Shown: positions 2 through 15,849, counted from the first letter of the stretch. The stretch is 24,000 nt of DNA from Candidatus Electrothrix aarhusensis (GCA_004028505.1 MTKO01000129.1:30559-54558), one strand, 5' to 3'. Numbers and translations are program-made. Notes: generated by a model not told the origin, from the sequence alone.

Positions 2-916
2 TACCGGGTTGTAGCGATACAGGGGCCAGTGACCGCAAGCAACCGCTAGTTTCTGCTGATCAAGTCCCTTAGCCAGATTCAGGCCGTGGTTGATGCAGTG
101 TGAGTAGGCGATGATAAGGGACGGTCCGTCGTAGGCTTCAGCCTCGTTGATCGCCTTAACCAGCTGCTGTGGGTTGGCACCCAGAGAAACCTTGGCCACG
201 TAGACGTTGCCGTAGGTGGAGAAGATCATACCCATATCCTTCTTAGGCATTTTCTTTCCGCCAGCTGCGAACTGCGCCACTGCGGCACGCGGGGTGGACT
301 TGGACATCTGACCACCGGTGTTGGAGTAGACCTCGGTGTCCAGTACCATAACATTGACGTTCTCGCCAGAAGCCAGAACATGATCCAGGCCGCCGTAGCC
401 AATGTCGTAGGCCCAACCGTCGCCGCCGAAGATCCATACGGACTTCTTGACCAGATAATCAGCTACAGGCAGGAGTCGGGAAGCTGTGACGCTGTTGTTA
501 CCAGCCAGAGCTGCTTTCAGCTCTTCAACCCGCGCCCGCTGAGCTTCGATTTCGTCCTGATTTTTCTGGTTTGCATCCAGCAGAGAATCGGCAAGTTCCT
601 GGGAAACGAGCCCTTCTTCAGCAGCAAGAGTCAGTAACTCAGCAGCCTGCATGCCCAGCTTGTTGGCGCTTTGACGCATGCCCAGACCGTACTCAGCGTT
701 ATCCTCGAACAGGGAGTTGGACCAGGAAGGACCGCGTCCGTCAGCGCGTTGTGAATACGGGGTGGTGGGCAGGTTGCCGCCATAGATAGAGGAACAGCCT
801 GTGGCGTTGGCCACCATCATCCGGTCACCGAACAGCTGAGTAACCAGTTTGATGTACGGGGTCTCGCCACAGCCTGCACAGGCACCGGAGAACTCGAACA
901 GGGGTCGCTTGAGCTG
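2..916 (-). CDS. nifJ: Pyruvate:ferredoxin/flavodoxin oxidoreductase (single-polypeptide PFOR), C-terminal TPP-binding part. It is out of frame with 817..3366, and its 3' end lies beyond the window edge.
   Basis: Reverse-strand translation in the frame with codons 2-4, 5-7 and so on reads QLKRPLFEFSGACAGCGETPYIKLVTQLFGDRMMVANATGCSSIYGG...WIFGGDGWAYDIGYGGLDHVLASGENVNVMVLDTEVYSNTGGQ...IIAYSHCINHG...GHWPLYRYNP. This is the conserved PFOR C-terminal domain with its GDG TPP motif. There is no stop before position 1, which explains its absence from the ORF track. Confidence 0.9.
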
Positions 917-3366
917 CTTCCCTTGACGGTTGCCGGATTAATGGAAGCGTTAGCCATTTCAGGCAGAGCCATGAAGGTCTTCCAGTTGGCCTGGGACTCT
1001 TTCAATACCGCGTCGGTATTGGGGATCATCTTGAGGGCTGACTCGTCCGTCTTGTTGCCTTCTGCATCTTTCTTCCGAGCCGGACAAGCGGTGGAACAGA
1101 GCGTACAACCTGCGCAGTCGGCACTGGATATCTGAACAGTGAATTTGCTGCCTTTGAATTCCTTGCCGTTGGCATCAGCGGTTTTAAACGTATCGTTCGC
1201 ACCTGCCGTTTTCAAAGCATCTTCCGTGGCAACCTTGATGCGGATACAGCCGTGCGGGCAGACCAGAGAACATTTACCGCATTGAATACAGGTTTCCGGA
1301 GACCATTCCGGTACGTTGACCGCAATATTACGTTTTTCCCACTGGGTGGTGGCGGTGGGCCAGCGACCATCGGCAGGCATTTCAGAAACCTTGATCTGAT
1401 CGCCTTTGCCTTCGATCATCTTGGCGGTCACCTGCTTAACAAACTCAGGGGCCTCGGCAGGTACAGTCTCCGGCAGCTCATGACCTGTGATGTTGTCAGG
1501 CAGGGTAACCTCGACGATATTATTGACTGCACCGTCAACTGCGTCGTAGTTCATGTTGACGATTTTGTCGCCTTTCTTGCCGTAGGTCTTCTTGATCGCA
1601 GTCTTGATTGCGTCGATTGCCTCATCCTTCTTGAGGATACCGGAGATCAGGAAGAAGGCGGTCTGCATGATCATATTGATGCGCGCGCCCAGTCCGATGG
1701 CAATACCGAGCTTGAGAGCGTCGATGATATAGAACTTGGCGTTCTTGTCGATCAGTTGCTGCTGCACCTTGGCTGGCAGCTCGTTCCAGACGCTGTCCTT
1801 ATCAAGGGTGGTGGTGAGCAGAAAGGTGCCGCCGTCTTCCAGATTGGCCAGCATGTCGTAGCTATTCAGGAAGGTGAAGTTATGGCAGGCTACAAAGCTA
1901 GCCTTGTTGATCAGATACGGAGCCACAACCTGATTCTCGCCAAAGCGGAGATGGGACACGGTCATGGAGCCTGATTTCTTGGAATCGTAGACAAAATAGC
2001 CCTGAGCCGAGTTGTCAGTCTCTGTACCGATGATCTTGATAGTGTTCTTGTTCGCACCGACCGTACCGTCAGAACCCAAACCGTAGAACATGGCTCGGTA
2101 GACATCATCGCCTTCGATATTATAGGACTTGTCGTAGCTCAGTGAGGTGTGGGTTACGTCATCATTGGGACCGACACAGAAATGGTTTTTCGGAGCCATG
2201 GAAACCATGTTGTCGTACACAGCCTTGACCATTGCCGGGCTAAATTCCGCAGAACCCAAACCGTAACGACCAGCCAGTACCAAGGGCATAAACATGGTCG
2301 GATTGGCTTCAGCAGCCTCACCTATAGCAGCGCGGACATCCAGGTACAGCGGATCTCCCGGTGCGCCTGGCTCTTTGCAGCGATCCAAAACGGTAAGGCG
2401 CTCAACAGAGGAGGGCAAGGCATTAACCATAGCCTTCATGTCAAAGGGACGGAACAGGCGGACAATAACCATGCCCACTTTACGACCGTCAGCAACCAGA
2501 TGATCAATGGTGGCTGCTACAGTTTCAGCACCAGAACCCATGATAACAACTACGTCTGTTGCATCAGGTGCGCCGTAGTAATCAAAAAGATTATACTGAC
2601 GACCGGTCAGAGCGGCGAACTTGTCCATGGTTTCCTGAACAATTCCGGGGATCGCATTATAGTACTTATTGACCGTCTCGCGACCGGTGAAGTAAACATC
2701 CGGGTTCTGAGCTGTACCTGACATAGAAGGACGATCCGGGGTCAGAGCGCGTTCACGGTGTGCGGTGATCAGCTTCTCGTCGATCATTTCCAGCATATCT
2801 TCGTTGGTCAGCTGCTCCATCTTCTGGATCTCATGGGAGGTTCGGAAGCCGTCAAAGAAATGGAGGAAGGGAATGCGTGAAGCCAGGGTGGCCTGGGTGG
2901 AGATCAGGGCCATATCCTGCGCTTCCTGAACATTCTGCGAGCAGAGCTGAGCCCAGCCGGTCTGGCGGGCGCTCATCACGTCACCGTGATCACCGAAAAT
3001 GGACAGACCCTGGCAGGCCAAGGAACGAGCCGTAACATGGAAAACGGTCGGGGTCAGCTCACCGGCCAGCTTGTACATGTTAGGCAGCATCAGCAGCAGG
3101 CCCTGAGAAGCGGTAAAAGTGGTGCAAAGTGCGCCAGTGGCCAAGGAACCGTGCAGAGAACCGGCAACGCCGCCTTCAGATTGCATCTGCGAGATAACCG
3201 GTATAGAGCCCCAGATATTCTTCTGTTTTGCGGTGGCTTTAGCATCAGCCTCTGCCGCCATCGGAGAAGAGGGAGTAATTGGATAGATGGTGATTACTTC
3301 ACTGGTAGCGTAGGCAACATGCGTACACGCCTGATTGCCGTCAATAGTGACCATTTTTCGCGACAT
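817..3366 (-). CDS. nifJ: Pyruvate:ferredoxin/flavodoxin oxidoreductase, N-terminal ~815 aa. The last ~33 aa of the track ORF are out-of-frame read-through.
   Basis: The 849-aa ORF starts MSRKMVTIDGNQACTHVAYATSEVITIYPITPSSPMA. It carries the ferredoxin-like insert CIQCGKCSLVCPHGCIR...CAGCTLCSTACP (two 4Fe-4S motifs). Recognisable PFOR sequence ends at ...INPATVKG, and the tail SSSSDPCSSSPVPVQAVARPRTSNWLLSCSVTG is the wrong frame of the next PFOR domain. An RBS-like AAGGGAGA lies 8 nt upstream of the ATG. Confidence 0.95.
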   Translation of the reverse strand: MSRKMVTIDGNQACTHVAYATSEVITIYPITPSSPMAAEADAKATAKQKNIWGSIPVISQMQSEGGVAGSLHGSLATGALCTTFTASQGLLLMLPNMYKLAGELTPTVFHVTARSLACQGLSIFGDHGDVMSARQTGWAQLCSQNVQEAQDMALISTQATLASRIPFLHFFDGFRTSHEIQKMEQLTNEDMLEMIDEKLITAHRERALTPDRPSMSGTAQNPDVYFTGRETVNKYYNAIPGIVQETMDKFAALTGRQYNLFDYYGAPDATDVVVIMGSGAETVAATIDHLVADGRKVGMVIVRLFRPFDMKAMVNALPSSVERLTVLDRCKEPGAPGDPLYLDVRAAIGEAAEANPTMFMPLVLAGRYGLGSAEFSPAMVKAVYDNMVSMAPKNHFCVGPNDDVTHTSLSYDKSYNIEGDDVYRAMFYGLGSDGTVGANKNTIKIIGTETDNSAQGYFVYDSKKSGSMTVSHLRFGENQVVAPYLINKASFVACHNFTFLNSYDMLANLEDGGTFLLTTTLDKDSVWNELPAKVQQQLIDKNAKFYIIDALKLGIAIGLGARINMIMQTAFFLISGILKKDEAIDAIKTAIKKTYGKKGDKIVNMNYDAVDGAVNNIVEVTLPDNITGHELPETVPAEAPEFVKQVTAKMIEGKGDQIKVSEMPADGRWPTATTQWEKRNIAVNVPEWSPETCIQCGKCSLVCPHGCIRIKVATEDALKTAGANDTFKTADANGKEFKGSKFTVQISSADCAGCTLCSTACPARKKDAEGNKTDESALKMIPNTDAVLKESQANWKTFMALPEMANASINPATVKGSSSSDPCSSSPVPVQAVARPRTSNWLLSCSVTG

Positions 3367-4368: not shown

Positions 4369-5127
4369 CTATCTGGAGAGGATCTCAAGCCCTGCTAATC
4401 CCACACCTGTCAAGAGCAGGATCGTCAACAGCAGCAGATCGCTTTTCTGCATACCATCAGAATCGTACAGGCTGTAAAAATGCCCGGAAAAACCGCGTAA
4501 CTCCATAGCCTGTTGTATCCGAGCTGCTCGGTTCCAGCTTCGGACCAGCATCATTCCGAGCATGTAGCTGTAGGTCTTATAGGTATGCAGGTTGGTTCTT
4601 GGCTGAAAGCAGCGCAGGGTAGCAGCACGCTGCAAGCGAAACATTTCCTGCTGAATAAGAGCGATATAACGATAGGAAAAGAGAAGGAGCAGGCAGAGCT
4701 TGGGTGACAGGCGTAGTTGCTGGAGGCCGTGCCCGAGCTGTGCAGCAGTTGATGTTGCAAGCAGGCTGATAAAGAGAAGAATAACAGCATTGGACTTAAC
4801 AGTTATCAGGAGAGCGAGAAAAAAGCCGGTGCTGCTCAGATTGATCCCGATAAACGAAATATTTTTGCCAGCTGTGTAGGTCAGGGGCAGAATAAGGCAA
4901 AGCAGAAGGTTGAAGCTGTTAACAATCAGTAGGCGATGGAAAAGCTTTCTCCATGATAAATGTGCTGTAAGCACAAGAGTAAAGGCAAGCAGGAAACCGA
5001 GTAGGGCAGGTGCCCAAGTCTGACTCAGGGCGATGACCAAGCTGAGTATGCCGGTGCTGATCAGCTTCCCCCTGGGGTCTGCCCGGTGCAGAAATGAAGT
5101 ACCGTTGCTGAACTGTTCAAAAGTCAT
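4369..5127 (-). CDS. cbiQ: Cobalt/nickel ECF transporter T component (CbiQ/NikQ family)
   Basis: 252-aa polytopic membrane ORF with CbiQ/EcfT-like sequence, including the arginine-rich coupling region ...YRYIALIQQEMFRLQRAATLRCF. It is the last gene of the cbiM-led minus-strand cluster. Confidence 0.8.
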   Translation of the reverse strand: MTFEQFSNGTSFLHRADPRGKLISTGILSLVIALSQTWAPALLGFLLAFTLVLTAHLSWRKLFHRLLIVNSFNLLLCLILPLTYTAGKNISFIGINLSSTGFFLALLITVKSNAVILLFISLLATSTAAQLGHGLQQLRLSPKLCLLLLFSYRYIALIQQEMFRLQRAATLRCFQPRTNLHTYKTYSYMLGMMLVRSWNRAARIQQAMELRGFSGHFYSLYDSDGMQKSDLLLLTILLLTGVGLAGLEILSR

Positions 5128-5181
5128 GTGATCTCATAACATAACTGCAACAACAGGTTCAATAATTTTTTTTATCGTAAC

Positions 5182-5209
5182 AATCCCCCCCTTTTTTAGG
5201 GGGGGGATT
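5182..5209. other. Perfect GC hairpin (AATCCCCCCC / loop TTTTTTAG / GGGGGGGATT) between the nikK-like gene and cbiQ
   Basis: A C7 run at 5185-5191 is complementary to a G8 run at 5199-5206, flanked by AAT/ATT. It starts about 10 nt after the reconstructed nikK-like stop codon. A T-rich tract follows it only on the + strand. Confidence 0.6.
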
Positions 5210-5218
5210 ATTTGCTTT

Positions 5219-5987
5219 TTATTTGTACGCATCCAGATAGGTCCAGAGGACAGCACCCAGCTCAACACCTTTTTCGTTACCTTCAGGGTCCTTGATGGTG
5301 TAGTCGGCCTCATTCAGAGCGGCAAATCCCCACCAGCCGCCTGGGGACAGGAAAAGGTGAATACCCCATTCTCATCAGCCTTGACCACCTGGGTAACATG
5401 GTAGTCACTCGGAGCCTTGAATTTCTTGTCTTTATTATACAGCTCCACTTCAACCTCTGCGCCGGGAACCGGTTTGCCCTTGAGCAGAACCTGACCGGAA
5501 AAGCTGTTGCCTGCATAGTTGCCAAAAGGACGGGTTAGCGGCACGATCTCGGTGGCAATGCCGACCGGCTCATCCCATCCTTGATCATCACCAAAGGCAG
5601 CGATCAGCGTCTTGGTGTAATGGATGATAGATACATCCTCAGCCGGTTCCCAGTACGGGGTTGGCTCCATGACAAAGGTGTATACGCCAGGACGTTTAAT
5701 GGGCACCTCGGTTGTCCAGGATGCATGATTCATGACCGTAGTCTCCTTGAGAGCCGGAAGCAGGTCGGTCTTCTTGTCGCCTGCTACCATAAAGAAGGCT
5801 TTCGGCTTAACGAGATCCATGCCGATTATTTCAAAGGGATGGGAAAAAGAGAGGTCCAGTTTGACACTCTTTTCCTTGGGCTCTAGGATATTATCCGAAG
5901 GATAATCATCCCGAAATGGGCAAGGGCCTCACCCGTCATACAGGCGAGAAAGAGTGCGGTTGCAGCAACAGCTTTGATCTTCATCAT
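5219..5987 (-). pseudogene. Periplasmic Ni/Co-uptake accessory protein, NikK-like (DUF4198-type), disrupted by two single-base frameshifts
   Basis: Three reading-frame pieces join into one protein. (a) 5987 downwards reads MMKIKAVAATALFLACMTGEALAHFGMII, with RBS AGGAG upstream. (b) The track ORF frame reads PSDNILEPKEKSVKLDLSFSHPFEIIGMDLVKPK...FTFSCPQA. (c) A third frame reads GWWGFAALNEADYTIKDPEGNEKGVELGAVLWTYLDAYK, with stop at 5219. The frame switches lie near 5900 and 5337-5340. Confidence 0.75.
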
Positions 5988-6065
5988 GAAATACTCCTTT
6001 TTTGTATCAGATATTATTTTTTTGGATCAACATTGAGCAAGATCCTTTTTTCCGACGGGGACACC

Positions 6066-6689
6066 TTATCCGTCTGTCGAAGTCTTCTTTTTCTTCTTTG
6101 ATTGGAACCAGGCAAGGAGGGCTGCTAGACCCATAATGCAGCCGATCCCGCCAAGAATATCCCGAGGACCGGCCTTTTTTTCACGTCCTTCCGCGAGGTG
6201 TTGTTTAATGGGGATCAACTCTCTGTTCAATTCCTGCCGCACAATTGCCCGTACAGCCTCTCTATCTACAGATTCCGCTGCTGATTCTTTTGCTGGTTTT
6301 ATTACGGGCGGTTGCGCGGTCTGGATCGGATCGGAGGCTGTGGGGAGATATTCGTCTGCTGTCAGAAGCCATTCGCCGCGATGACCGTCACCTGTCTCCA
6401 CGGTGATCAACAGATCCAATTTTTGCTCAACAGCCTGTTGCGGCAGGGTGAACTGGAACGTACCTTTATCATCGGTTTGTATTGTTAGCAGGGCGACGAG
6501 TGATTCGGCATTCTGGACATGAACTGGTACATTTTTAGCCTTACGTCCTCCGCTAAAAAATGCCTCTCCGTAGATCTGCTGCTCACCTGTCCAGCAGAAG
6601 ACATTCAGCTTATGCGCTTGAGCAGGGAGTGGACTCAGTGAAAATAAGACTGCAATGAGGAGTGCTACCAGAAAACGAAACCAGTTCAT
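6066..6689 (-). CDS. Ni/Co transport accessory membrane protein, NikL-like (signal peptide, periplasmic beta-rich domain, C-terminal TM anchor)
   Basis: The likely start MNWFRFLVALLIAVLFSLSPLPAQA at 6689 overlaps the cbiM stop codon (ATGA overlap at 6686-6689). The C-terminal anchor reads ILGGIGCIMGLAALLAWF followed by a KKKKK tail. The position between cbiM and the DUF4198-type gene matches nikMLKQ-type clusters. The track's longer 230-aa version adds an implausible N-terminus inside cbiM. Confidence 0.5.
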   Translation of the reverse strand: MNWFRFLVALLIAVLFSLSPLPAQAHKLNVFCWTGEQQIYGEAFFSGGRKAKNVPVHVQNAESLVALLTIQTDDKGTFQFTLPQQAVEQKLDLLITVETGDGHRGEWLLTADEYLPTASDPIQTAQPPVIKPAKESAAESVDREAVRAIVRQELNRELIPIKQHLAEGREKKAGPRDILGGIGCIMGLAALLAWFQSKKKKKTSTDG

Positions 6690-7288
6690 GCGTATTTGAG
6701 ATGTAAAATTTCTGGCTGAACTTTGGCGATAAAACCGACAGTGAACATGGTGATGCATCCTTCAATGATCATGACCGGTACATTGGCTGCAATAATAAGT
6801 TGCGCAGCAGCTGTGAAGCCGGTATCGGTAAGGGCGAGGGCGCAGGATGTCAGCAGTGAAGCCATTAGAATTGCCAGGAAACCCGCAATAAAGGCAGCAG
6901 CAGGCCGTGTTTTAGGATTGTCCATCCAAGGACGGGTCAGATAGTAACAGCAGAGAGCTGGGACAGACATAGTGACCGTGTTCACCCCGAGAACGGCAAA
7001 ACCGCCAAATTGGAAAAATAGGGTCTGAAGAAAGAGAGCAATAAGAATCGCCGGAAAAGCAGCCCAGCCCAGCATTACTCCCAGTAGCCCGATTAACATC
7101 AGGTGGACCGACCCCGGCCCAAGAGGGACATGAATGAGTCCTGCAACAAAAAAGGCAGAAGAAAGCAGAGCAACGGGCATGACCTGTTCAAGTTCAATCT
7201 TTTTAAGCCCAATATAGGTGCCAATCGCTGCAACGACTCCTCCGCTTATCAAAACCGGCGCCGAGAGAATTCCTTCTGAAATATGCAT
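6686..7288 (-). CDS. cbiM: Cobalt/nickel ECF transporter substrate-specific component CbiM/NikM
   Basis: 200-aa polytopic membrane ORF. It begins MHISEGIL, the conserved Met-His N-terminus of this family, and contains GLIHVPLGPGSVHLMLIGLLG. Confidence 0.9.
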   Translation of the reverse strand: MHISEGILSAPVLISGGVVAAIGTYIGLKKIELEQVMPVALLSSAFFVAGLIHVPLGPGSVHLMLIGLLGVMLGWAAFPAILIALFLQTLFFQFGGFAVLGVNTVTMSVPALCCYYLTRPWMDNPKTRPAAAFIAGFLAILMASLLTSCALALTDTGFTAAAQLIIAANVPVMIIEGCITMFTVGFIAKVQPEILHLKYA

Positions 7289-7745: not shown

Positions 7746-7931
7746 ATGTTTGAAGTAGTTGTAGACAAAGAAAAATGTGTAGGTTGTGAAGAGTGTGTTG
7801 GTTCCTGCCCTGCAGGGGTTTTTGAAATCGTTGATGGAAAGGCAGATCCGGTCAACGAAGACGAATGTCTGGGTTGCGAAACCTGCGTGGAAGTTTGCGA
7901 ATCCGATGCCATCACCGTTACCGAAAGCTAA
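7746..7931 (+). CDS. Small 2x[4Fe-4S] ferredoxin (61 aa)
   Basis: MFEVVVDKEKCVGCEECVGSCP...CLGCETCVEVCE contains two CxxCxxCxxxC(P/E) motifs. The RBS AAGGAGA lies 6 nt upstream of the ATG at 7746. The track ORF's upstream TTG extension (7623) is not credible. Confidence 0.85.
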   Translation: MFEVVVDKEKCVGCEECVGSCPAGVFEIVDGKADPVNEDECLGCETCVEVCESDAITVTES

Positions 7932-8313: not shown

Positions 8314-8350
8314 AATAAAAAAGGGCACAGGGAAAAATCCCTGTGCCCTT
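8314..8350 (-). terminator. Rho-independent terminator of the Cys-rich protein gene
   Basis: A 13-bp perfect stem AAGGGCACAGGGA / TCCCTGTGCCCTT has a 4-nt loop. On the minus strand it is followed by TTTTATTG, about 40 nt after the stop codon at 8393. Confidence 0.85.
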
Positions 8351-8392: not shown

Positions 8393-9535
8393 TTAGTGCT
8401 GGAAGCGCAGTCCTATACCGAAACGTCCGTACTGAGAGATGTCACTTAGTTCATCAACAGCATTTCGAGCTTCCAAGAAGATGGAAATATTGAATTCATC
8501 TGGTTCTCCGTATACACGCGCTCCGATGTTAGCTAGAATGTCGAGGTCTGTGTCTTCAGAATCGAGATCGTCGTTTCCGTCACTTATCCATGCGCCGAGT
8601 CCGAGGCCAATAAAGCCGTCAAAGGTTTCGGACCAGTTGTACTGAGCAAAGGCGTCAATCAACAGGGCGTCATCACCATCGGAACCTTCCAGTTTAGGAG
8701 CGGCACCGACCATAGCCAAGAATGAAAGATTTTCAAGTGAGGTGCCTGTAAAAGGGCTGTACTCCACACCTAAGCGCGCAAAGAGGTAGTCTGCCGGATC
8801 TGAGAGCCGCAGATAACCGATGTCGCCAATAAAACGAAGTGGGCTCATCGTTCCGCCATCGTAACAGCCGAGTTTCTGACATTCGGCAGGGCAGCCTTCT
8901 GCGTCGGGGTTATCTTCACACTCAGCTGGGCAGTCATCACAAGTAATCACAGCAGCTGTTTCATCAGGGTCATCAAGGCTAGCGTCGTCAGACAGACACT
9001 CTTTCGGCACATCCTGGCACTCAGTGGGACAGTCTTCCTGGTCCTGAGACCCTTCTTTGCAGGATGTAGGACAGTCAGTGGGGAATTTATCGCAGATATT
9101 GCAACCTAACTCGTCACATATAGGCGGGCAATCCTTTCCTTCAGGATTTTCGATACATTCTACAGAACAATCGTCACAACTGTAACATTTTATGTCGCGG
9201 CAGATATCCGGACAACCTTCGTCATAGGGATTGATTTTACATTCATCCGTACAGTCCTCACAGGATTGGCAGGTTATATCCTTACAAATATCCGGGCAAT
9301 CCGCACCATACGGGTTTTTCTTGCATTCATCTGAGCAATCGTCGCAGGATGCTTGGGATGCCTGACATTCTGGATCCTTACAGACGGACGGACATCCTTT
9401 ACTGTAAGGATTTTCCAAACATTCATCTGAGCAGTCGTCGCAGGTGAAGGCTCTGCCTCCGGCAAAGGCGACTCCTGCCGACAGCATGACTAAAACAGCA
9501 GCCTGTGCCAGCACTTTCAGTTTCATGATTCTCAC
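8393..9535 (-). CDS. Secreted cysteine-rich tandem-repeat protein with a C-terminal beta-barrel-like domain (unknown family)
   Basis: 380-aa ORF. RBS AAGGAGAG lies upstream. The Sec-type signal peptide reads MRIMKLKVLAQAAVLVMLSAGVAFA. Residues 32-224 hold 36 Cys in six modules of C-x2-C-x3-C-x8-CP-x2-C-x4-C. Residues 230-380 contain no Cys and end ...GRFGIGLRFQH. The repeat is visible at the DNA level, for example ACATTCATCTGAGCAGTCGTCGCAGG at 9419 versus GCATTCATCTGAGCAATCGTCGCAGG at 9323. Confidence 0.85.
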   Translation of the reverse strand: MRIMKLKVLAQAAVLVMLSAGVAFAGGRAFTCDDCSDECLENPYSKGCPSVCKDPECQASQASCDDCSDECKKNPYGADCPDICKDITCQSCEDCTDECKINPYDEGCPDICRDIKCYSCDDCSVECIENPEGKDCPPICDELGCNICDKFPTDCPTSCKEGSQDQEDCPTECQDVPKECLSDDASLDDPDETAAVITCDDCPAECEDNPDAEGCPAECQKLGCYDGGTMSPLRFIGDIGYLRLSDPADYLFARLGVEYSPFTGTSLENLSFLAMVGAAPKLEGSDGDDALLIDAFAQYNWSETFDGFIGLGLGAWISDGNDDLDSEDTDLDILANIGARVYGEPDEFNISIFLEARNAVDELSDISQYGRFGIGLRFQH

Positions 9536-9629
9536 TCTCCTTGTTCTGTGAAGTTTATCTCATTGCCCGTGTTTTCGGACGAACTGCATTTTACCTGGAT
9601 AAACCCCGGTAAAATTTTTTTTACTTTTA

Positions 9630-9658
9630 ATATATATAAGCTCCTTGGTGATCTGGCA
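9630..9658 (-). promoter_or_regulatory. Candidate sigma-70 promoter for the Cys-rich protein gene (TTGCCA-N17-TATATA on the minus strand)
   Basis: The reverse complement of 9653-9658 is TTGCCA, and the reverse complement of 9630-9635 is TATATA. The site lies about 95 nt upstream of the ATG at 9535. Confidence 0.3.
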
Positions 9659-9825
9659 ACATAAAAAAAGGCAACGAGCGACTGTAGCGTCATTTTTCAG
9701 TGCAATAACAGTACAAGAGCACTCCATGAACAAAGAAAAATAAGATTAGCCCTTGCGTTCCTTTTCCAAGAGGATACTCTATTATTTGAGAGAATTTTTT
9801 TTTACACTCAACTTATATAAAAAAT

Positions 9826-10434
9826 ATGAAGAAAATATCCGGGGTAACCGGAATCATCTGGGCGATCTTTCTGCTCGGTTATTGCTTCTTTCCCGAGCTG
9901 GTCAAACAGGATGCGATTCAATTTCCCCTAGCACTCCTTCTGTCCATTTTTTTGCCGGTCAGTTTTTGGCAGGTTGCAAATCAGGAGAAAAAAAAATACT
10001 TGGCCCTGCTCTTTATCGGAATGTTTCTCGTAAATATTTCCTTTTTGCTGGTTATCATTCGTGGCAGTCTCGTCATGCAGCAACAGATTTCAGAAGAAGT
10101 GAACAGGGGAATACAGCAGGAGCTGGCGGAATATTTGGTTACCGCAGTCAGTGGTAATAAACGGAGGATCGCAGCCCGACTTATTTATCAGCGGCATGGT
10201 GTTGTCTTACCGTTTAAAAACGAGTCAGACATCTACACCTTATACGTGCCGAGCAAAGCTGATAAGAAAACATTTCAGAAAAACTTTTTCGCACGTAATG
10301 ATCTCAAACTCCAGAGCAGAGGCCTTGCAGCTTCTTTTTCCACTGCACTCCTCCTGCTTATGATCCATGCTGGGCTTTTTATCGGGCTGCTGGTCTTTCT
10401 GATTCTCTATGATAAGCGAGAGGGGGAAGGATAG
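9826..10434 (+). CDS. Hypothetical integral membrane protein (about 4 TM segments with a central soluble loop)
   Basis: 202-aa ORF with hydrophobic stretches GIIWAIFLLGYCFF, LALLLSIFLPVSFW, LALLFIGMFLVNISFLLVII and ALLLLMIHAGLFIGLLVFLIL. No family was recognised. Confidence 0.6.
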   Translation: MKKISGVTGIIWAIFLLGYCFFPELVKQDAIQFPLALLLSIFLPVSFWQVANQEKKKYLALLFIGMFLVNISFLLVIIRGSLVMQQQISEEVNRGIQQELAEYLVTAVSGNKRRIAARLIYQRHGVVLPFKNESDIYTLYVPSKADKKTFQKNFFARNDLKLQSRGLAASFSTALLLLMIHAGLFIGLLVFLILYDKREGEG

Positions 10435-10544: not shown

Positions 10545-11891
10545 TTACACACCATACTTTTTCAACTTATTCAGCAGGGTCTTCCGAGTGATCTGTAAAC
10601 GACGAGCTGCTTCGCTGCGGTTTCCGTTGGTTTCCTCAAGGGTTTTCAGGATGAGCACACGCTCAGCTTCTCTCAGGGTGGACGGTGGCTCTTCTTCTTT
10701 TTTCGGATTCATTCCAGCCCAGTTCTGAACAGCCATAGGCAGGCTGTCAAGGTCAAGATAGTCTCCCCGCATCAGAATCACACCCCGTTCTATGGCGTTT
10801 TCCAGCTCCCGGACATTGCCCGGCCAGGGGTAGCGATTAAAGATATCCATGCATTCTGGAGTGATTCCCTCTACATTACGCTTATTTCTTTTGGCAAAAT
10901 TGCGCAGAAAAAAATCAGCGAGCAAGGGGATATCACCGTCACGGTCACATAAAGAAGGCATGTCCAGGGCCACAACATTCAGTCGGTAATAAAGATCTTC
11001 CCGGAAGTTACCCGCCCGCACCTCCGCTTCCAGGTTCCGGTTGGTTGCTGTGACGATGCGTACATCTACGGTAATGACTTCCTGGCCGCCAACTCGCTGG
11101 AGTTCGTGTTCCTGAAGGACTCGTAAGAGTTTCGCCTGCATAGCCGGGGTTGTTTCACCTATCTCGTCAAGGAAGAGCGTGCCCTCCTGGGCCTGGACAA
11201 AACAGCCCTCGCGGCGACGGTCTGCTCCTGTAAAGGCTCCTTTTTCATGGCCAAAGAGCTCGGATTCCAGCAGAGTTTCAGAAAGGGCTGCACAGTTTAC
11301 CTTGATAAAGGGACCCTTCCTGCGGTGGCTTTTATAATGGAGGGCTGAGGCGACCAGCTCCTTGCCAGTCCCTGAATCACCGCTGATGAGTACAGTGGCC
11401 TCTGTGGGAGCAACCTGGACAATCATCTCCCAAAGGGTTTGCATAGGAATTGAAGATCCTATAATTCTGCCGTCCTCGCCAAAAGGTTTTTCAGAGAGCT
11501 CTGTTTTGTCCGGTTGCTGGCGATGCCCCATCGCAACTTCCAAGGTTTGGCGAAGTCGTTCAAAATCTATGGGTTTGGTAAGATAATCGTGAGCACCGAG
11601 TTTAATTGCTTCAACTGCTGAATCTATTGAGGAATAGGCAGTCATCATAACCACCGGAATCGATGGATTAATGGCGTGTATCTTGCGCAAAGCCTCCAAG
11701 CCGTCCATAGGTTCCATGCAGACATCCAAGAGGATAACATCAAAAGGCCCTTGCCGTACCGCTTCAACCGCTGTCTCGCCGTCATCCGCTTCCTGACACA
11801 ACCATCCCCATTCAGTCAGCATGGAGTAGAGCATGTACCTATGGACCTGCTCATCGTCTACAATTAAAATTTTGACCTTCTTTTGTTCCAT
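10545..11891 (-). CDS. Sigma-54-dependent Fis-family response regulator (NtrC/AtoC-like: REC + AAA+ + HTH)
   Basis: The REC domain reads KILIVDDE...ILLDVCMEPMDG. The AAA+ domain carries Walker A GDSGTGKE and the sigma-54 contact motif ESELFGHEKGAFTGA. The C-terminal Fis-type HTH reads GNRSEAARRLQITRKTLLNKLKKYGV. The ATG at 11891 (MEQKKVKILIVDD) is preferred over the track's TTG at 11912. Confidence 0.9.
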   Translation of the reverse strand: MEQKKVKILIVDDEQVHRYMLYSMLTEWGWLCQEADDGETAVEAVRQGPFDVILLDVCMEPMDGLEALRKIHAINPSIPVVMMTAYSSIDSAVEAIKLGAHDYLTKPIDFERLRQTLEVAMGHRQQPDKTELSEKPFGEDGRIIGSSIPMQTLWEMIVQVAPTEATVLISGDSGTGKELVASALHYKSHRRKGPFIKVNCAALSETLLESELFGHEKGAFTGADRRREGCFVQAQEGTLFLDEIGETTPAMQAKLLRVLQEHELQRVGGQEVITVDVRIVTATNRNLEAEVRAGNFREDLYYRLNVVALDMPSLCDRDGDIPLLADFFLRNFAKRNKRNVEGITPECMDIFNRYPWPGNVRELENAIERGVILMRGDYLDLDSLPMAVQNWAGMNPKKEEEPPSTLREAERVLILKTLEETNGNRSEAARRLQITRKTLLNKLKKYGV

Positions 11892-12133
11892 GAATTTAGT
11901 AAGCTGTTGCAAGTTTTATTACTTCGGTTGAGGAAAGGTTTATATCGGCACGCTGATCAGCACAATATGAATTCAAGTAAAAAAAATATAAAATAATGTG
12001 ATGCAGTGAAATTATCATAAAAAGTCAGGGTTCACCTTATAAGTTATGTAGAAAACAAGTCCCTGTCCATAAAAAAAAGACTTTTGAAAAAACAATATCC
12101 TTTAAGAGGAGGGGAGTCGGGCGAGTCTTTCAA

Positions 12134-15042: not shown

Positions 15043-15849
15043 TTAAGATACGTTGGAGTTTGAAATTACGACACGGTTTTTTATCCCTCTTATGACATCC
15101 AAAGGAAATCCTGTAGTTTTAGCGATAATATCAGGGGAGATACCCTCTTTAAGTAAGGCTTTCGCAACGGCCAGCTTACCTTCGTCAAACTGTGCTCTCT
15201 GGAGTTCCTCCTGATGATACTCTTCAATCATATTCGCACGTTCAGCAGGTGAAATTCGATCCTTCTGGATGTGATCAAAAAGTTTATGAATCTCCGGTCG
15301 ACTATAGCGTTTTTCATCAACCTCTTCATCTAACGTGTCATTAATTGCCAGCAGCCATTCCCGATAAGGCTCTGGAGTGGCATCATTGACATATTTAGGA
15401 CACAGGTAGATAATTTTATGAGGAATTTCATTTAAAGGGTTCCCAGATAAATCGTGAGGGTCAAAATCTGTCATTGCGATGTCAGTTTTATGACGGTCAC
15501 CGGAAGTCAGGACAACAAGAGTGAAAACCTTTAATGCCGGATGATAGTCTTTTGAATTTGCAATCTGTTCCAACAAAGCGGCACAGTGATAATAAAGAAA
15601 CCTGTCGTAATGGTCAATACTGCGTGCATGCTGAATATCAACAATGACGCGGTGCTTCTTGTCTTCCGCGAACAAATCAAAACGTGGTGCGACATACCCT
15701 ATCGGCGGGTCAAATTCTTTTTCGGTTTCAACCTGTTCTATCTCCAGAGCTATTCCCAGCATATCTCGAATAAATGCGACAAAGATTTCTGGGTCACAGA
15801 ATGCTTTTTCAAAGACAACTCCGTACCTTAATGATGCCACATGTTTCAT
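15043..15849 (-). CDS. PD-(D/E)XK nuclease family transposase-like protein (Rpn/YhgA-like recombination-promoting nuclease)
   Basis: 268 aa. The N-terminus LRYGVVFEKAFCDPEIFVAFIRDMLG and the core FDLFAEDKKHRVIVDIQH (D...D/E-x-Q/K) are typical of this family. The C-terminus EGKLAVAKALLKEGISPDIIAKTTGFPLDVI is the family's characteristic helical tail. The gene is AT-rich relative to its flanks. Confidence 0.7.
   Translation of the reverse strand: MKHVASLRYGVVFEKAFCDPEIFVAFIRDMLGIALEIEQVETEKEFDPPIGYVAPRFDLFAEDKKHRVIVDIQHARSIDHYDRFLYYHCAALLEQIANSKDYHPALKVFTLVVLTSGDRHKTDIAMTDFDPHDLSGNPLNEIPHKIIYLCPKYVNDATPEPYREWLLAINDTLDEEVDEKRYSRPEIHKLFDHIQKDRISPAERANMIEEYHQEELQRAQFDEGKLAVAKALLKEGISPDIIAKTTGFPLDVIRGIKNRVVISNSNVS

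Follow-up and report, generated by a model that had tools for sequence, protein, structure and literature searches.

We report a gene of the cable bacterium Candidatus Electrothrix aarhusensis, carried by the minus strand of a stretch of 24,000 nucleotides (nt) of its genome (GCA_004028505.1, MTKO01000129.1:30559-54558; the whole stretch is called the window in what follows), whose product joins a predicted Sec signal peptide, an array of six cysteine hairpin modules and a C-terminal domain predicted to form an eight-stranded outer-membrane β-barrel. The cysteine domain, for which neither sequence nor fold comparison gave a match, is an undescribed repeat; as an anchor the barrel is of an ordinary kind, and the combination of the two is new. 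By sequence searches the protein is restricted to cable bacteria. Tentatively, and with a probability of roughly 45%, we read it as a disulfide-laddered structural module of the periplasm, tethered to the outer membrane and belonging to an envelope specific to cable bacteria. These organisms conduct electrons over centimetres via periplasmic Ni/S fibres, and published models leave a slot for a cysteine-bearing periplasmic protein. An earlier reading made from the DNA sequence alone (the first-pass annotation) lacked this context, and it is the organism that makes the protein interesting, because it occurs in cable bacteria only. The gene offers a concrete and cheaply testable candidate, lineage-restricted, conserved in both genera, read as having a strong promoter, and encoding a protein that would be tethered to the outer membrane and whose 30-36 invariant cysteines are predicted to lie in the fibre compartment.

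The cysteine modules: sequence, distribution and conservation

Amino acids (aa) are numbered here from the GTG codon that opens the 380-aa open reading frame 8393..9535 (minus strand), a count that runs +3 relative to the ATG start at 9526 favoured below. All 36 cysteines fall within aa 32-224 and aa 225-380 hold none, so that the last ~150 residues, which end in GIGLRFQH, are Cys-free as the first-pass annotation had stated. The cysteine region consists of 17.7% Cys and 27% Asp plus Glu, with a net charge of about -40, and has few Lys or Arg residues. Modules 1 to 4 and module 6 (Table 1) follow exactly the spacing C-x2-C-x3-C-x8-C-x3-C-x4-C. The claim of six modules sharing one spacing thus stands for five of them and fails for module 5, a symmetric variant of the form C-x6-C-x3-C-x9-C-x3-C-x6-C. 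Neither are the copies near-identical, as had been said: compared among themselves the modules are 46-69% identical in protein and 56-67% in DNA, and their sequences therefore mark them as old duplications.

The domain belongs to no named family, as had been suspected. Searches of Pfam and NCBIfam with the whole protein and with each half (E<=10 or E<=1) gave zero matches to it, as did single-sequence and profile searches of the PDB, and a Foldseek search of the PDB with a separate AlphaFold2 (AF2) model of aa 26-228 (predicted local distance difference test, pLDDT, 77.7) yielded 0 matches at E<=10. No characterised family in Pfam, NCBIfam or the PDB was matched, and the novelty claimed earlier is upheld. 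In the AF2 models both arms of each module appear as short helical turns around an NPY or NPxG loop. A reading of the 'DCSDE' motif as an LDL-A or cbEGF-like calcium-binding element was dropped, the motif being unconserved in Electronema and matching no model.

A search of 5.8e9 proteins returned 57 matches, and all those that bear an organism name come from Ca. Electrothrix, Ca. Electronema or 'Desulfobulbus sp.'; we take the 'Desulfobulbus sp.' entries TB and F3 to be single-filament genomes of cable bacteria. The best match is 86% identical, and the identical sequence is absent from that collection. A profile search of 1.84e9 cluster representatives found 85 relatives only, nearly all of them via the barrel alone. 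A scan of GTDB with one genome per species located 19 loci, all in Electrothrix, Electronema or metagenome-assembled genomes (MAGs) of Desulfobulbaceae, and the MAG loci resemble Electrothrix or Electronema in sequence and synteny. Carriers include E. laxa, gigas, marina, aestuarii, scaldis, YB6 and GW3-4 in the first genus and En. aureum GS (orthologue on NQJD01000013.1, locus L017 8001-9047), halotolerans and nielsenii in the second. The databases label the homologues 'hypothetical protein' or 'Outer membrane protein beta-barrel domain-containing protein', and full-text searches with targeted reading of cable-bacteria papers, leaving aside the proteome of Kjeldsen et al. (2019), turned up neither this protein nor any Cys-rich candidate for the fibres.

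Conservation singles out the first five modules. All 30 of their cysteines are invariant in 24 of 24 full-length homologues at 47-87% identity, as are many prolines and loop residues, so that the pattern is not due to chance; the conservation of the cysteines, on which the first-pass annotation had made its case depend, is thereby confirmed. The mean pairwise identity of modules 1-5 reaches 0.68 (0.59 once the Cys columns are removed), that of the barrel 0.65 and that of the linker with module 6 just 0.39. The number of modules is fixed at five and conservation proceeds module for module in both genera, as illustrated by the motifs CPDICxDIKCYS of module 3 and LGCNICDKFP where modules 4 and 5 join. 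Module 6 is absent from five homologues (P0008, P0012, P0024, P0026 and P0028) and truncated in three (P0010, P0011 and P0013), and P0014 and P0021 carry additional modules. The richness in Asp and Glu pointed out earlier is real in the window protein but is not conserved in distant homologues: the two residues make up 24-28% in the closest, Electrothrix-type proteins (P0001-P0014) and 14-23% in the distant, Electronema-type ones. Because of this fall, acidity is probably a salinity-related trait rather than part of the core function.

Export, outer-membrane barrel and orientation

The protein begins with the predicted signal peptide MKLKVLAQAAVLVMLSAGVAFA, followed by GG, in which neither a twin arginine nor a lipobox is present. 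It is composed of a lysine-rich n-region, a hydrophobic h-region and a c-region AFA/GG; A25 and G26 are invariant among the homologues and the A-x-A site is conserved. Neither the window protein's signal peptide nor the consensus of the homologue alignment contains an RR motif. Judged by rule, export is thus predicted to proceed by Sec and not by twin-arginine translocation (Tat); inspection of the sequence and the conserved A-x-A site agree with what had been annotated.

The barrel anchor proposed earlier for the last ~150 aa is borne out by prediction, as an eight-stranded barrel of the OmpA/NspA/PagL/OmpX type. The AF2 model of the full protein, built on a 24-sequence alignment, has a mean pLDDT of 77.9, with 82-95 in the barrel blocks except for a loop block at aa 321-330 (56) and values below 50 in the linker at aa 185-194. 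The top Foldseek matches in the PDB are all eight-stranded outer-membrane proteins, at E-values of 1.4e-4 to 4e-4 and a probability of 1.00: the OmpA transmembrane domain OmpA-TM (1bxw, E 1.4e-4), PagL (2erv), NspA (1p4t, template modelling (TM) score 0.69), OprF-N (4rlc), OmpW and OmpX, with target-normalised TM scores of 0.58-0.69 at a sequence identity of just 12-17%. By sequence, neither the window protein nor the isolated C-terminal domain matches a barrel model of Pfam or NCBIfam (no family was returned at cutoffs of E<=10 and E<=1), and PF13505 (OMP_b-brl) matches two of 13 related barrels below threshold (E 1.2e-3). Like the known small barrels (OmpA-TM, NspA, PagL, OprF-N and OmpX), aa 231-380 would form eight antiparallel strands joined by short turns, follow Sec export and may close with a comparable ...GxGLRF-x-x strand; unlike them, the barrel of this protein has Asp-rich loops, and in the model a helix is inserted between its strands 7 and 8. 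OmpA and OprF carry their soluble domain C-terminal to the barrel, whereas it is N-terminal here.

Because both termini of even-stranded outer-membrane barrels face the periplasm, the cysteine domain is, with moderate confidence, periplasmic and tethered beneath the outer membrane. The opposite orientation, an autotransporter-like display of the domain on the cell surface, for instance within the recently described surface layer or for contact with minerals or metals, is very improbable. An N-terminal 'passenger' followed by a C-terminal barrel does recall type V secretion, autotransporter β-domains occur among the lower-ranked Foldseek matches, and paralogues described below have a head-stalk-anchor layout that includes PKD domains. 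Yet the barrel has eight strands and not 12 or a trimeric 3x4, its best matches are OmpA, NspA, PagL and OmpX, AF2 places no pore-spanning helix before it, a polypeptide cannot pass an eight-stranded lumen, and the 'passenger' contains 36 cysteines; to our knowledge, autotransporter passengers avoid multiple disulfides. On the strand number, the missing helix and the 36-Cys 'passenger', the type V autotransporter class was rejected.

Chemistry of the cysteines and proposed role

The arrangement of the cysteines across the family argues for pairing. Their number in the N-terminal domain is even in 24/24 homologues (30, 34, 36, 44 or 48). In 49 family proteins, 235 modules fall into seven spacing types that cover 91% of all Cys; written as gaps between successive cysteines, with the loop between slashes, they are 2,3/8/3,4 (167 of the 235), 2,3/6/3,4, 6,3/8-9/3,6, 4,2,3/8/3,2,4, 2,3,3/8/3,2,3, 2,2,3/5/4,2,4 and 2,2,5/6/3,2,4. 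All seven have an equal number of cysteines in each arm and mirror or near-mirror gaps around a Cys-free loop. Modules carry six or eight cysteines, apart from one four-Cys variant, 3/8/3, in P0069; since this variant stands beside six- and eight-Cys types, comparison of the sequences indicates that a rung comes or goes as two symmetrically placed cysteines. Cysteines at i, i+3/4 and i+7 occupy one helix face, the arms being short helices in the AF2 models, and every canonical module includes a twin CX3C (C2-x3-C3 ... C4-x3-C5). As counts are even, spacing is mirrored and pairs come and go symmetrically, these data favour cross-arm disulfide rungs over ferredoxin-like clusters or discrete metal sites, and they suggest three disulfides per module as the simplest chemistry for the four-, six- and eight-Cys versions alike. 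Moreover, because the modules contain almost no hydrophobic residues, cross-links must hold their fold. The first-pass annotation had left the choice between metal chelation and disulfide knots with a preference for metal: the disulfide alternative better fits the even counts, the mirror spacing and the paired gain and loss, and the evidence leans against its favourite.

Disulfide-stapled helical hairpins with twin CX3C motifs are familiar from the small Tim proteins and the plant α-hairpinins. As in these, each of the two arms of a module, predicted as short antiparallel helices, bears a CX3C, the arms are mirrored and there is little hydrophobic core, so that nested disulfides across the arms would hold the fold. 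Unlike these, the modules have three to four predicted rungs instead of two and a loop of 5-9 residues, and five or six of them follow one another in tandem through two-residue linkers, in a setting predicted to be the bacterial periplasm and fused to a predicted outer-membrane barrel. No sequence homology to either group was detected, and the Pfam scan, which should cover zf-Tim10_DDP, ended without any match.

The paralogues of the window protein bear on the nature of the module. In cable bacteria several of them (P0044, P0049, P0072, which is CAK8717334.1, and P0033) have a C-terminal barrel 50-57% identical to that of the window, and members of this group (P0044, P0049 and others) start with a Cys-poor N-terminal head of ~140 aa for which neither the PDB nor NCBIfam holds a match. 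Between head and barrel lies nothing, Pro-rich repeats, PKD domains or hairpin modules of the eight-Cys type; Cys hairpin modules occupy this position in P0033, P0072, P0071 and P0069, and PKD domains or Pro-rich repeats take it in P0052, P0095, P0116, P0087 and P0042. The presence of hairpins in the position of a stalk or spacer speaks for the structural nature of the module. The window protein, in contrast to the paralogues, has no head and carries a fixed 5+1 array of six-Cys modules; since it keeps this fixed and highly conserved array without a head, the array itself would be the functional surface.

The paralogues are standalone genes whose contexts are uninformative. In Electronema PJ, S01.Bin068 and TJ a head-and-barrel gene ends just upstream of the orthologue (L020 6473-7264; L021 and L024), so that the two stand in tandem, and in TJ the orthologous position encodes a protein composed of head, Cys modules and barrel (P0069). 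Distant metagenomic members of the barrel family (P0052, P0095, P0116 and P0118), encoded on long contigs, have PKD-like domains between head and barrel, and one NCBI match to the distant barrel family is labelled just '[bacterium]'. The barrel and head family may therefore extend beyond cable bacteria, unlike the Cys-array protein.

We thus envisage a structural role along the following lines. Sec would export the precursor, whose last ~150 aa would insert into the outer membrane as an eight-stranded barrel of the OmpA/OmpX type, and the N-terminal domain of ~200 aa would, by the topology rule, hang into the periplasm directly under that membrane. This domain would consist of a fixed array of five hairpins, then a linker that varies, and module 6. 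Each module would be made of two short helical arms around its NPY/NPxG loop with three mirrored cysteines per arm. Three cross-arm rungs per module (C1-C6, C2-C5 and C3-C4), or ~18 disulfides in total, would turn the domain into a rigid and compact rod, acidic, resistant to detergent and protease and nearly devoid of a hydrophobic core. Modules 1-5 probably present a specific binding surface and are not a mere spacer, because they are conserved module for module in both genera and about as strongly as the barrel. In this way the protein may link the outer membrane to the periplasmic ridge and fibre compartment, or space the two.

Several considerations weigh against this proposal. A structural envelope role such as tethering of the outer membrane to ridge or fibre is indicated weakly, by phyletic restriction and location, and the fixed number of modules and the strong conservation of their surface fit ligand or metal binding as well as structure. 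The connectivity C1-C6/C2-C5/C3-C4 derives from spacing and is held with moderate confidence; mirror-symmetric Cys pairs would serve just as well to bind bridging metal ions or polysulfide, and cable bacteria span sulfidic and oxic zones. The periplasmic orientation depends on the topology rule for even-stranded barrels, and the window protein ends in GIGLRFQH, with Phe at position -3 and His last where an aromatic residue is usual (the C-terminal residue is F or Y in 17/24 homologues and H, R, Q, L or M in 7/24). Were the role only structural, the gene would still define an undescribed disulfide-ladder repeat and a small head-stalk-barrel envelope family peculiar to cable bacteria, both of which could serve as markers and open a way into the architecture of ridge and fibre.

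Binding of metal by reduced cysteines is the alternative that most requires discussion, although we consider it rather unlikely. The Cys pairs would bind Ni, Fe, Cu, Zn or Co, either as a periplasmic buffer or chaperone or as an anchor or template for nickel-bis(dithiolene) (NiBiD) ribbons. The proportion of Cys with flanking Asp and Glu, Sec export, the probable location beneath the outer membrane and the confinement of the protein to the sole lineage known to build periplasmic Ni/S fibres are all consistent with this. Fe, Ni and S are reported to co-localise at the fibres (PMC11976967), and the same work, a comparative genomics study published in EMBO Reports in 2025, came upon no periplasmic Ni-binding candidate for the fibre; its authors point out that their homology search would not have detected a new family. 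High Cys density also recalls metallothioneins and Csp1, and an extracytoplasmic thiolate metal sink would be analogous to them. Csp1-type copper storage proteins are exported and their cysteines, borne on helices, face a common core. The cysteine domain differs from both in having no CC or CxC motif and no four-helix bundle, in its even, mirror-paired cysteines, in its strong acidity and in its membrane anchor. Indeed the gaps between cysteines are never 0 or 1, and the loops keep their Tyr and Phe residues among homologues (NPY, DKFP); with no CC/CxC motif, no model match and conserved loop aromatics, the metallothionein class was rejected. The cysteine region has no His in the window protein and at most four (<=4) in any homologue, no metallothionein, Fer4 or other metal-domain model of Pfam or NCBIfam is matched, the coexistence of four-, six- and eight-Cys modules suits two-Cys rungs better than metal sites of three or four cysteines, and acidity is not conserved in freshwater homologues.

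The neighbourhood of the gene has also been invoked in favour of metal. The ferredoxin gene and the Ni/Co uptake operon reported by the first-pass annotation are present as described, the operon being of the NikM(K)LQO importer type described for cable bacteria (PMC11247825). The order gene-ferredoxin-nikMLKQ is kept in eight Electrothrix loci, including those of YB6 and gigas in which the other flank is rearranged, but it is found in none of the 13 Electronema-type loci examined, and the adjacency is weak evidence. Between the gene and nik lie a ferredoxin gene on the opposite strand and a strong terminator, so that the two are not co-transcribed. From these sequence comparisons the nik synteny is a genus-level feature and at best a weak hint, and a functional link to nik by synteny, limited as it is to Electrothrix, was dropped.

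A more specific proposal, distinctly improbable in our estimate, makes the cysteine domain the protein partner of the conductive fibres, an outer-membrane-tethered scaffold whose paired cysteines would cap, anchor or template NiBiD ribbons, for instance by S-S bonds with the sulfurs of terminal dithiolenes or by direct Ni-thiolate bonds. Models published in 2026 in Nature Communications and J Phys Chem Lett contain NiBiD oligomers capped at their ends by possible disulfide links with the cysteines of a hypothetical scaffold protein (PMC13534509, PMC13573619). According to Boschker et al. (2021), the protein of the fibre sheath seems mainly disordered rather than α-helical. If the proposal were true, each fibre would be fixed under its outer-membrane ridge, and part of the S signal of the fibre, possibly also of Fe or Ni, would be explained.

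Redox or sulfur chemistry seems a long shot. Paired cysteines would cycle between dithiol and disulfide or carry persulfide or polysulfide, relaying electrons or zero-valent sulfur in electrogenic sulfide oxidation. The paired Cys, the periplasmic location and the sulfide-oxidising host are compatible with such an array, as are an orphan b558-type dihaem cytochrome b encoded divergently upstream in eight Electronema-type loci and the adjoining ferredoxin gene of Electrothrix. No thioredoxin-fold, rhodanese, SoxY or DsrE-like signature was found in Pfam or NCBIfam, however, and 30-36 structural-looking cysteines in rigid hairpins are unlike known relays, which have one or two reactive ones; besides, the neighbours differ between the genera and are separately transcribed, and the adjacent ferredoxin lacks a signal peptide and is thus cytoplasmic.

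The idea of a ferredoxin-like protein, in which CxxCxxxC...CP would bind [4Fe-4S] or a similar cluster and conduct electrons, is barely credible. It draws on a superficial likeness of CxxC...CP and on the iron signal reported at the fibres (PMC11976967). Like two-cluster 2x[4Fe-4S] ferredoxins, of which the neighbouring gene at 7746-7931 encodes an example, the modules have Cys clusters that include a Cys-Pro. They differ by the pattern CxxCxxxC ... CPxxC ... C, which is not the CxxCxxCxxxCP of ferredoxins, by mirror-symmetric arms and by a Sec signal instead of Tat. The ferredoxin-like spacing reported earlier yields no Fer4 match even at E<=10, against 14 Fer4 families matched by the neighbouring ferredoxin. 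We know of no assembly route for Fe-S clusters in the periplasm, and the opinion that a cytoplasmically inserted cluster is unlikely agrees with the Sec signal and the lack of a Fer4 match.

Transcription unit and genomic neighbourhood

The true coding sequence (CDS) almost certainly spans 8393..9526 on the minus strand and encodes 377 aa, because the strong ribosome-binding site (RBS) AAGGAGA abuts the GTG codon, sits 10 nt before ATG 9526, and the homologues begin with MKLKVL; the start is equivalent to M4 in 23/23 full-length homologues of alignment A1.

Table 1. Positions of the gene's features and of neighbouring genes, counted from the first nucleotide of the window
Feature	Position	Strand	Remarks
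Candidate sigma-70-type promoter	9631..9669	-	read from sequence and conservation; sequence evidence only
Promoter T-tract	9669-9663	-	
Promoter -35, TTGCCA	9659-9654	-	followed by a 17-nt spacer
Promoter -10, TATATA	9636-9631	-	
5' untranslated region (UTR), ~100 nt	9527..9624	-	strongly conserved within Electrothrix (alignment A4)
Small hairpin in 5' UTR, GUCCG-AAAACA-CGGGC	9580-9565	-	
RBS, AAGGAGA	9542-9536	-	directly adjoins GTG
Sec signal peptide (aa 4-25)	9461..9526	-	judged by rule from sequence; cleavage A-F-A/G-G
Cys hairpin module 1 (aa 32-57)	9365..9442	-	spacing 2,3/8/3,4
Cys hairpin module 2 (aa 64-89)	9269..9346	-	
Cys hairpin module 3 (aa 92-117)	9185..9262	-	CPDICxDIKCYS nearly invariant
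Cys hairpin module 4 (aa 120-145)	9101..9178	-	
Cys hairpin module 5 (aa 148-180)	8996..9094	-	symmetric variant 6,3/9/3,6; invariant in all homologues
Variable acidic linker (aa 181-198)	8942..8995	-	length and sequence differ among homologues
Cys hairpin module 6 (aa 199-224)	8864..8941	-	dispensable/variable
Predicted 8-stranded outer-membrane β-barrel (aa 231-380)	8396..8845	-	AF2 and Foldseek
Barrel strands	aa 233-244, 248-259, 270-284, 290-302, 306-318, 329-343, 349-359, 371-379		AF2
Barrel helix between strands 7 and 8	aa 360-369		AF2
Intrinsic terminator	8321..8350	-	13-bp stem, 8 GC pairs, 4-nt loop, TTTTATT tail; strong
Operon nikM (PF01891), nikL (NF058648), DUF4198 protein (nikK-like), cbiQ	7288..4369	-	
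61-aa 2x[4Fe-4S] ferredoxin	7746-7931	+	
202-aa membrane protein, no family	9826-10434	+	
Sigma-54 response regulator	10545-11912	-	

The promoter and terminator proposed by the first-pass annotation fared unequally: the terminator is strong and the promoter block is conserved, but a strict consensus promoter scan made no call on TTGCCA-17-TATATA, which is not a strict consensus match. The block T6-N2-3-CTTGCCAGA-N14-TATAT is kept in 10/10 Electrothrix loci (alignment A4) and also precedes the gene in nearly all loci of the Electronema type, being degraded in L003 and L015. It is thus common to both genera (loci L001-L026) despite differing flanking genes. A sigma-54 promoter motif was not seen by eye upstream of the gene, though a sigma-54 activator gene lies nearby. 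The 5' UTR of ~100 nt is nearly invariant in Electrothrix, which is unusual for non-coding DNA at such divergence. Its RNAalifold consensus is weak (-6.3 kcal/mol), no compensatory pairs or covariation were counted by that program, and a structured 5' UTR was dropped in favour of conservation of sequence only. A scan of the window against Rfam matched no riboswitch or RNA family, those for B12 and NiCo included. The gene is monocistronic at every locus examined, and with a promoter block conserved in both genera and a 5' UTR conserved in Electrothrix it is probably an autonomous, strongly expressed unit.

The divergent neighbours of the gene are specific to each genus. The 202-aa membrane protein is conserved in eight Electrothrix sequences (seven loci and the window). 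In Electronema-type loci the divergent upstream position is held by an orphan dihaem cytochrome b of the SdhC b558 family (115 bits on TIGR02046, whose cutoff is 96 bits), located at 9084-9722 of L003 on the minus strand and with homologues in L006, L013, L014, L015, L020, L021 and L024; no SdhA or SdhB genes stand beside it in L003, the sole locus checked by gene table. The two neighbours are unrelated, and a conserved partner gene common to both genera was accordingly rejected.

Farther along the window, the nikM-nikL-DUF4198(nikK)-cbiQ operon has no adjoining ATPase gene (nikO/cbiO). The gene for pyruvate:ferredoxin oxidoreductase (5-3366, minus strand) is split by a frameshift near 919-937, from frame -1 to -3, and is either a pseudogene or affected by an indel of the assembly; E. 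aestuarii has an intact orthologue of 1190 aa. In GW3-4 a pair of transposase genes follows cbiQ. The transposase-like genes nearby, one of the PD-(D/E)XK family in the window (15043-15849, minus strand) and HTH_32 and DDE_3 genes in GW3-4 (L001 15443-16697), fit the local rearrangements seen between Electrothrix species.

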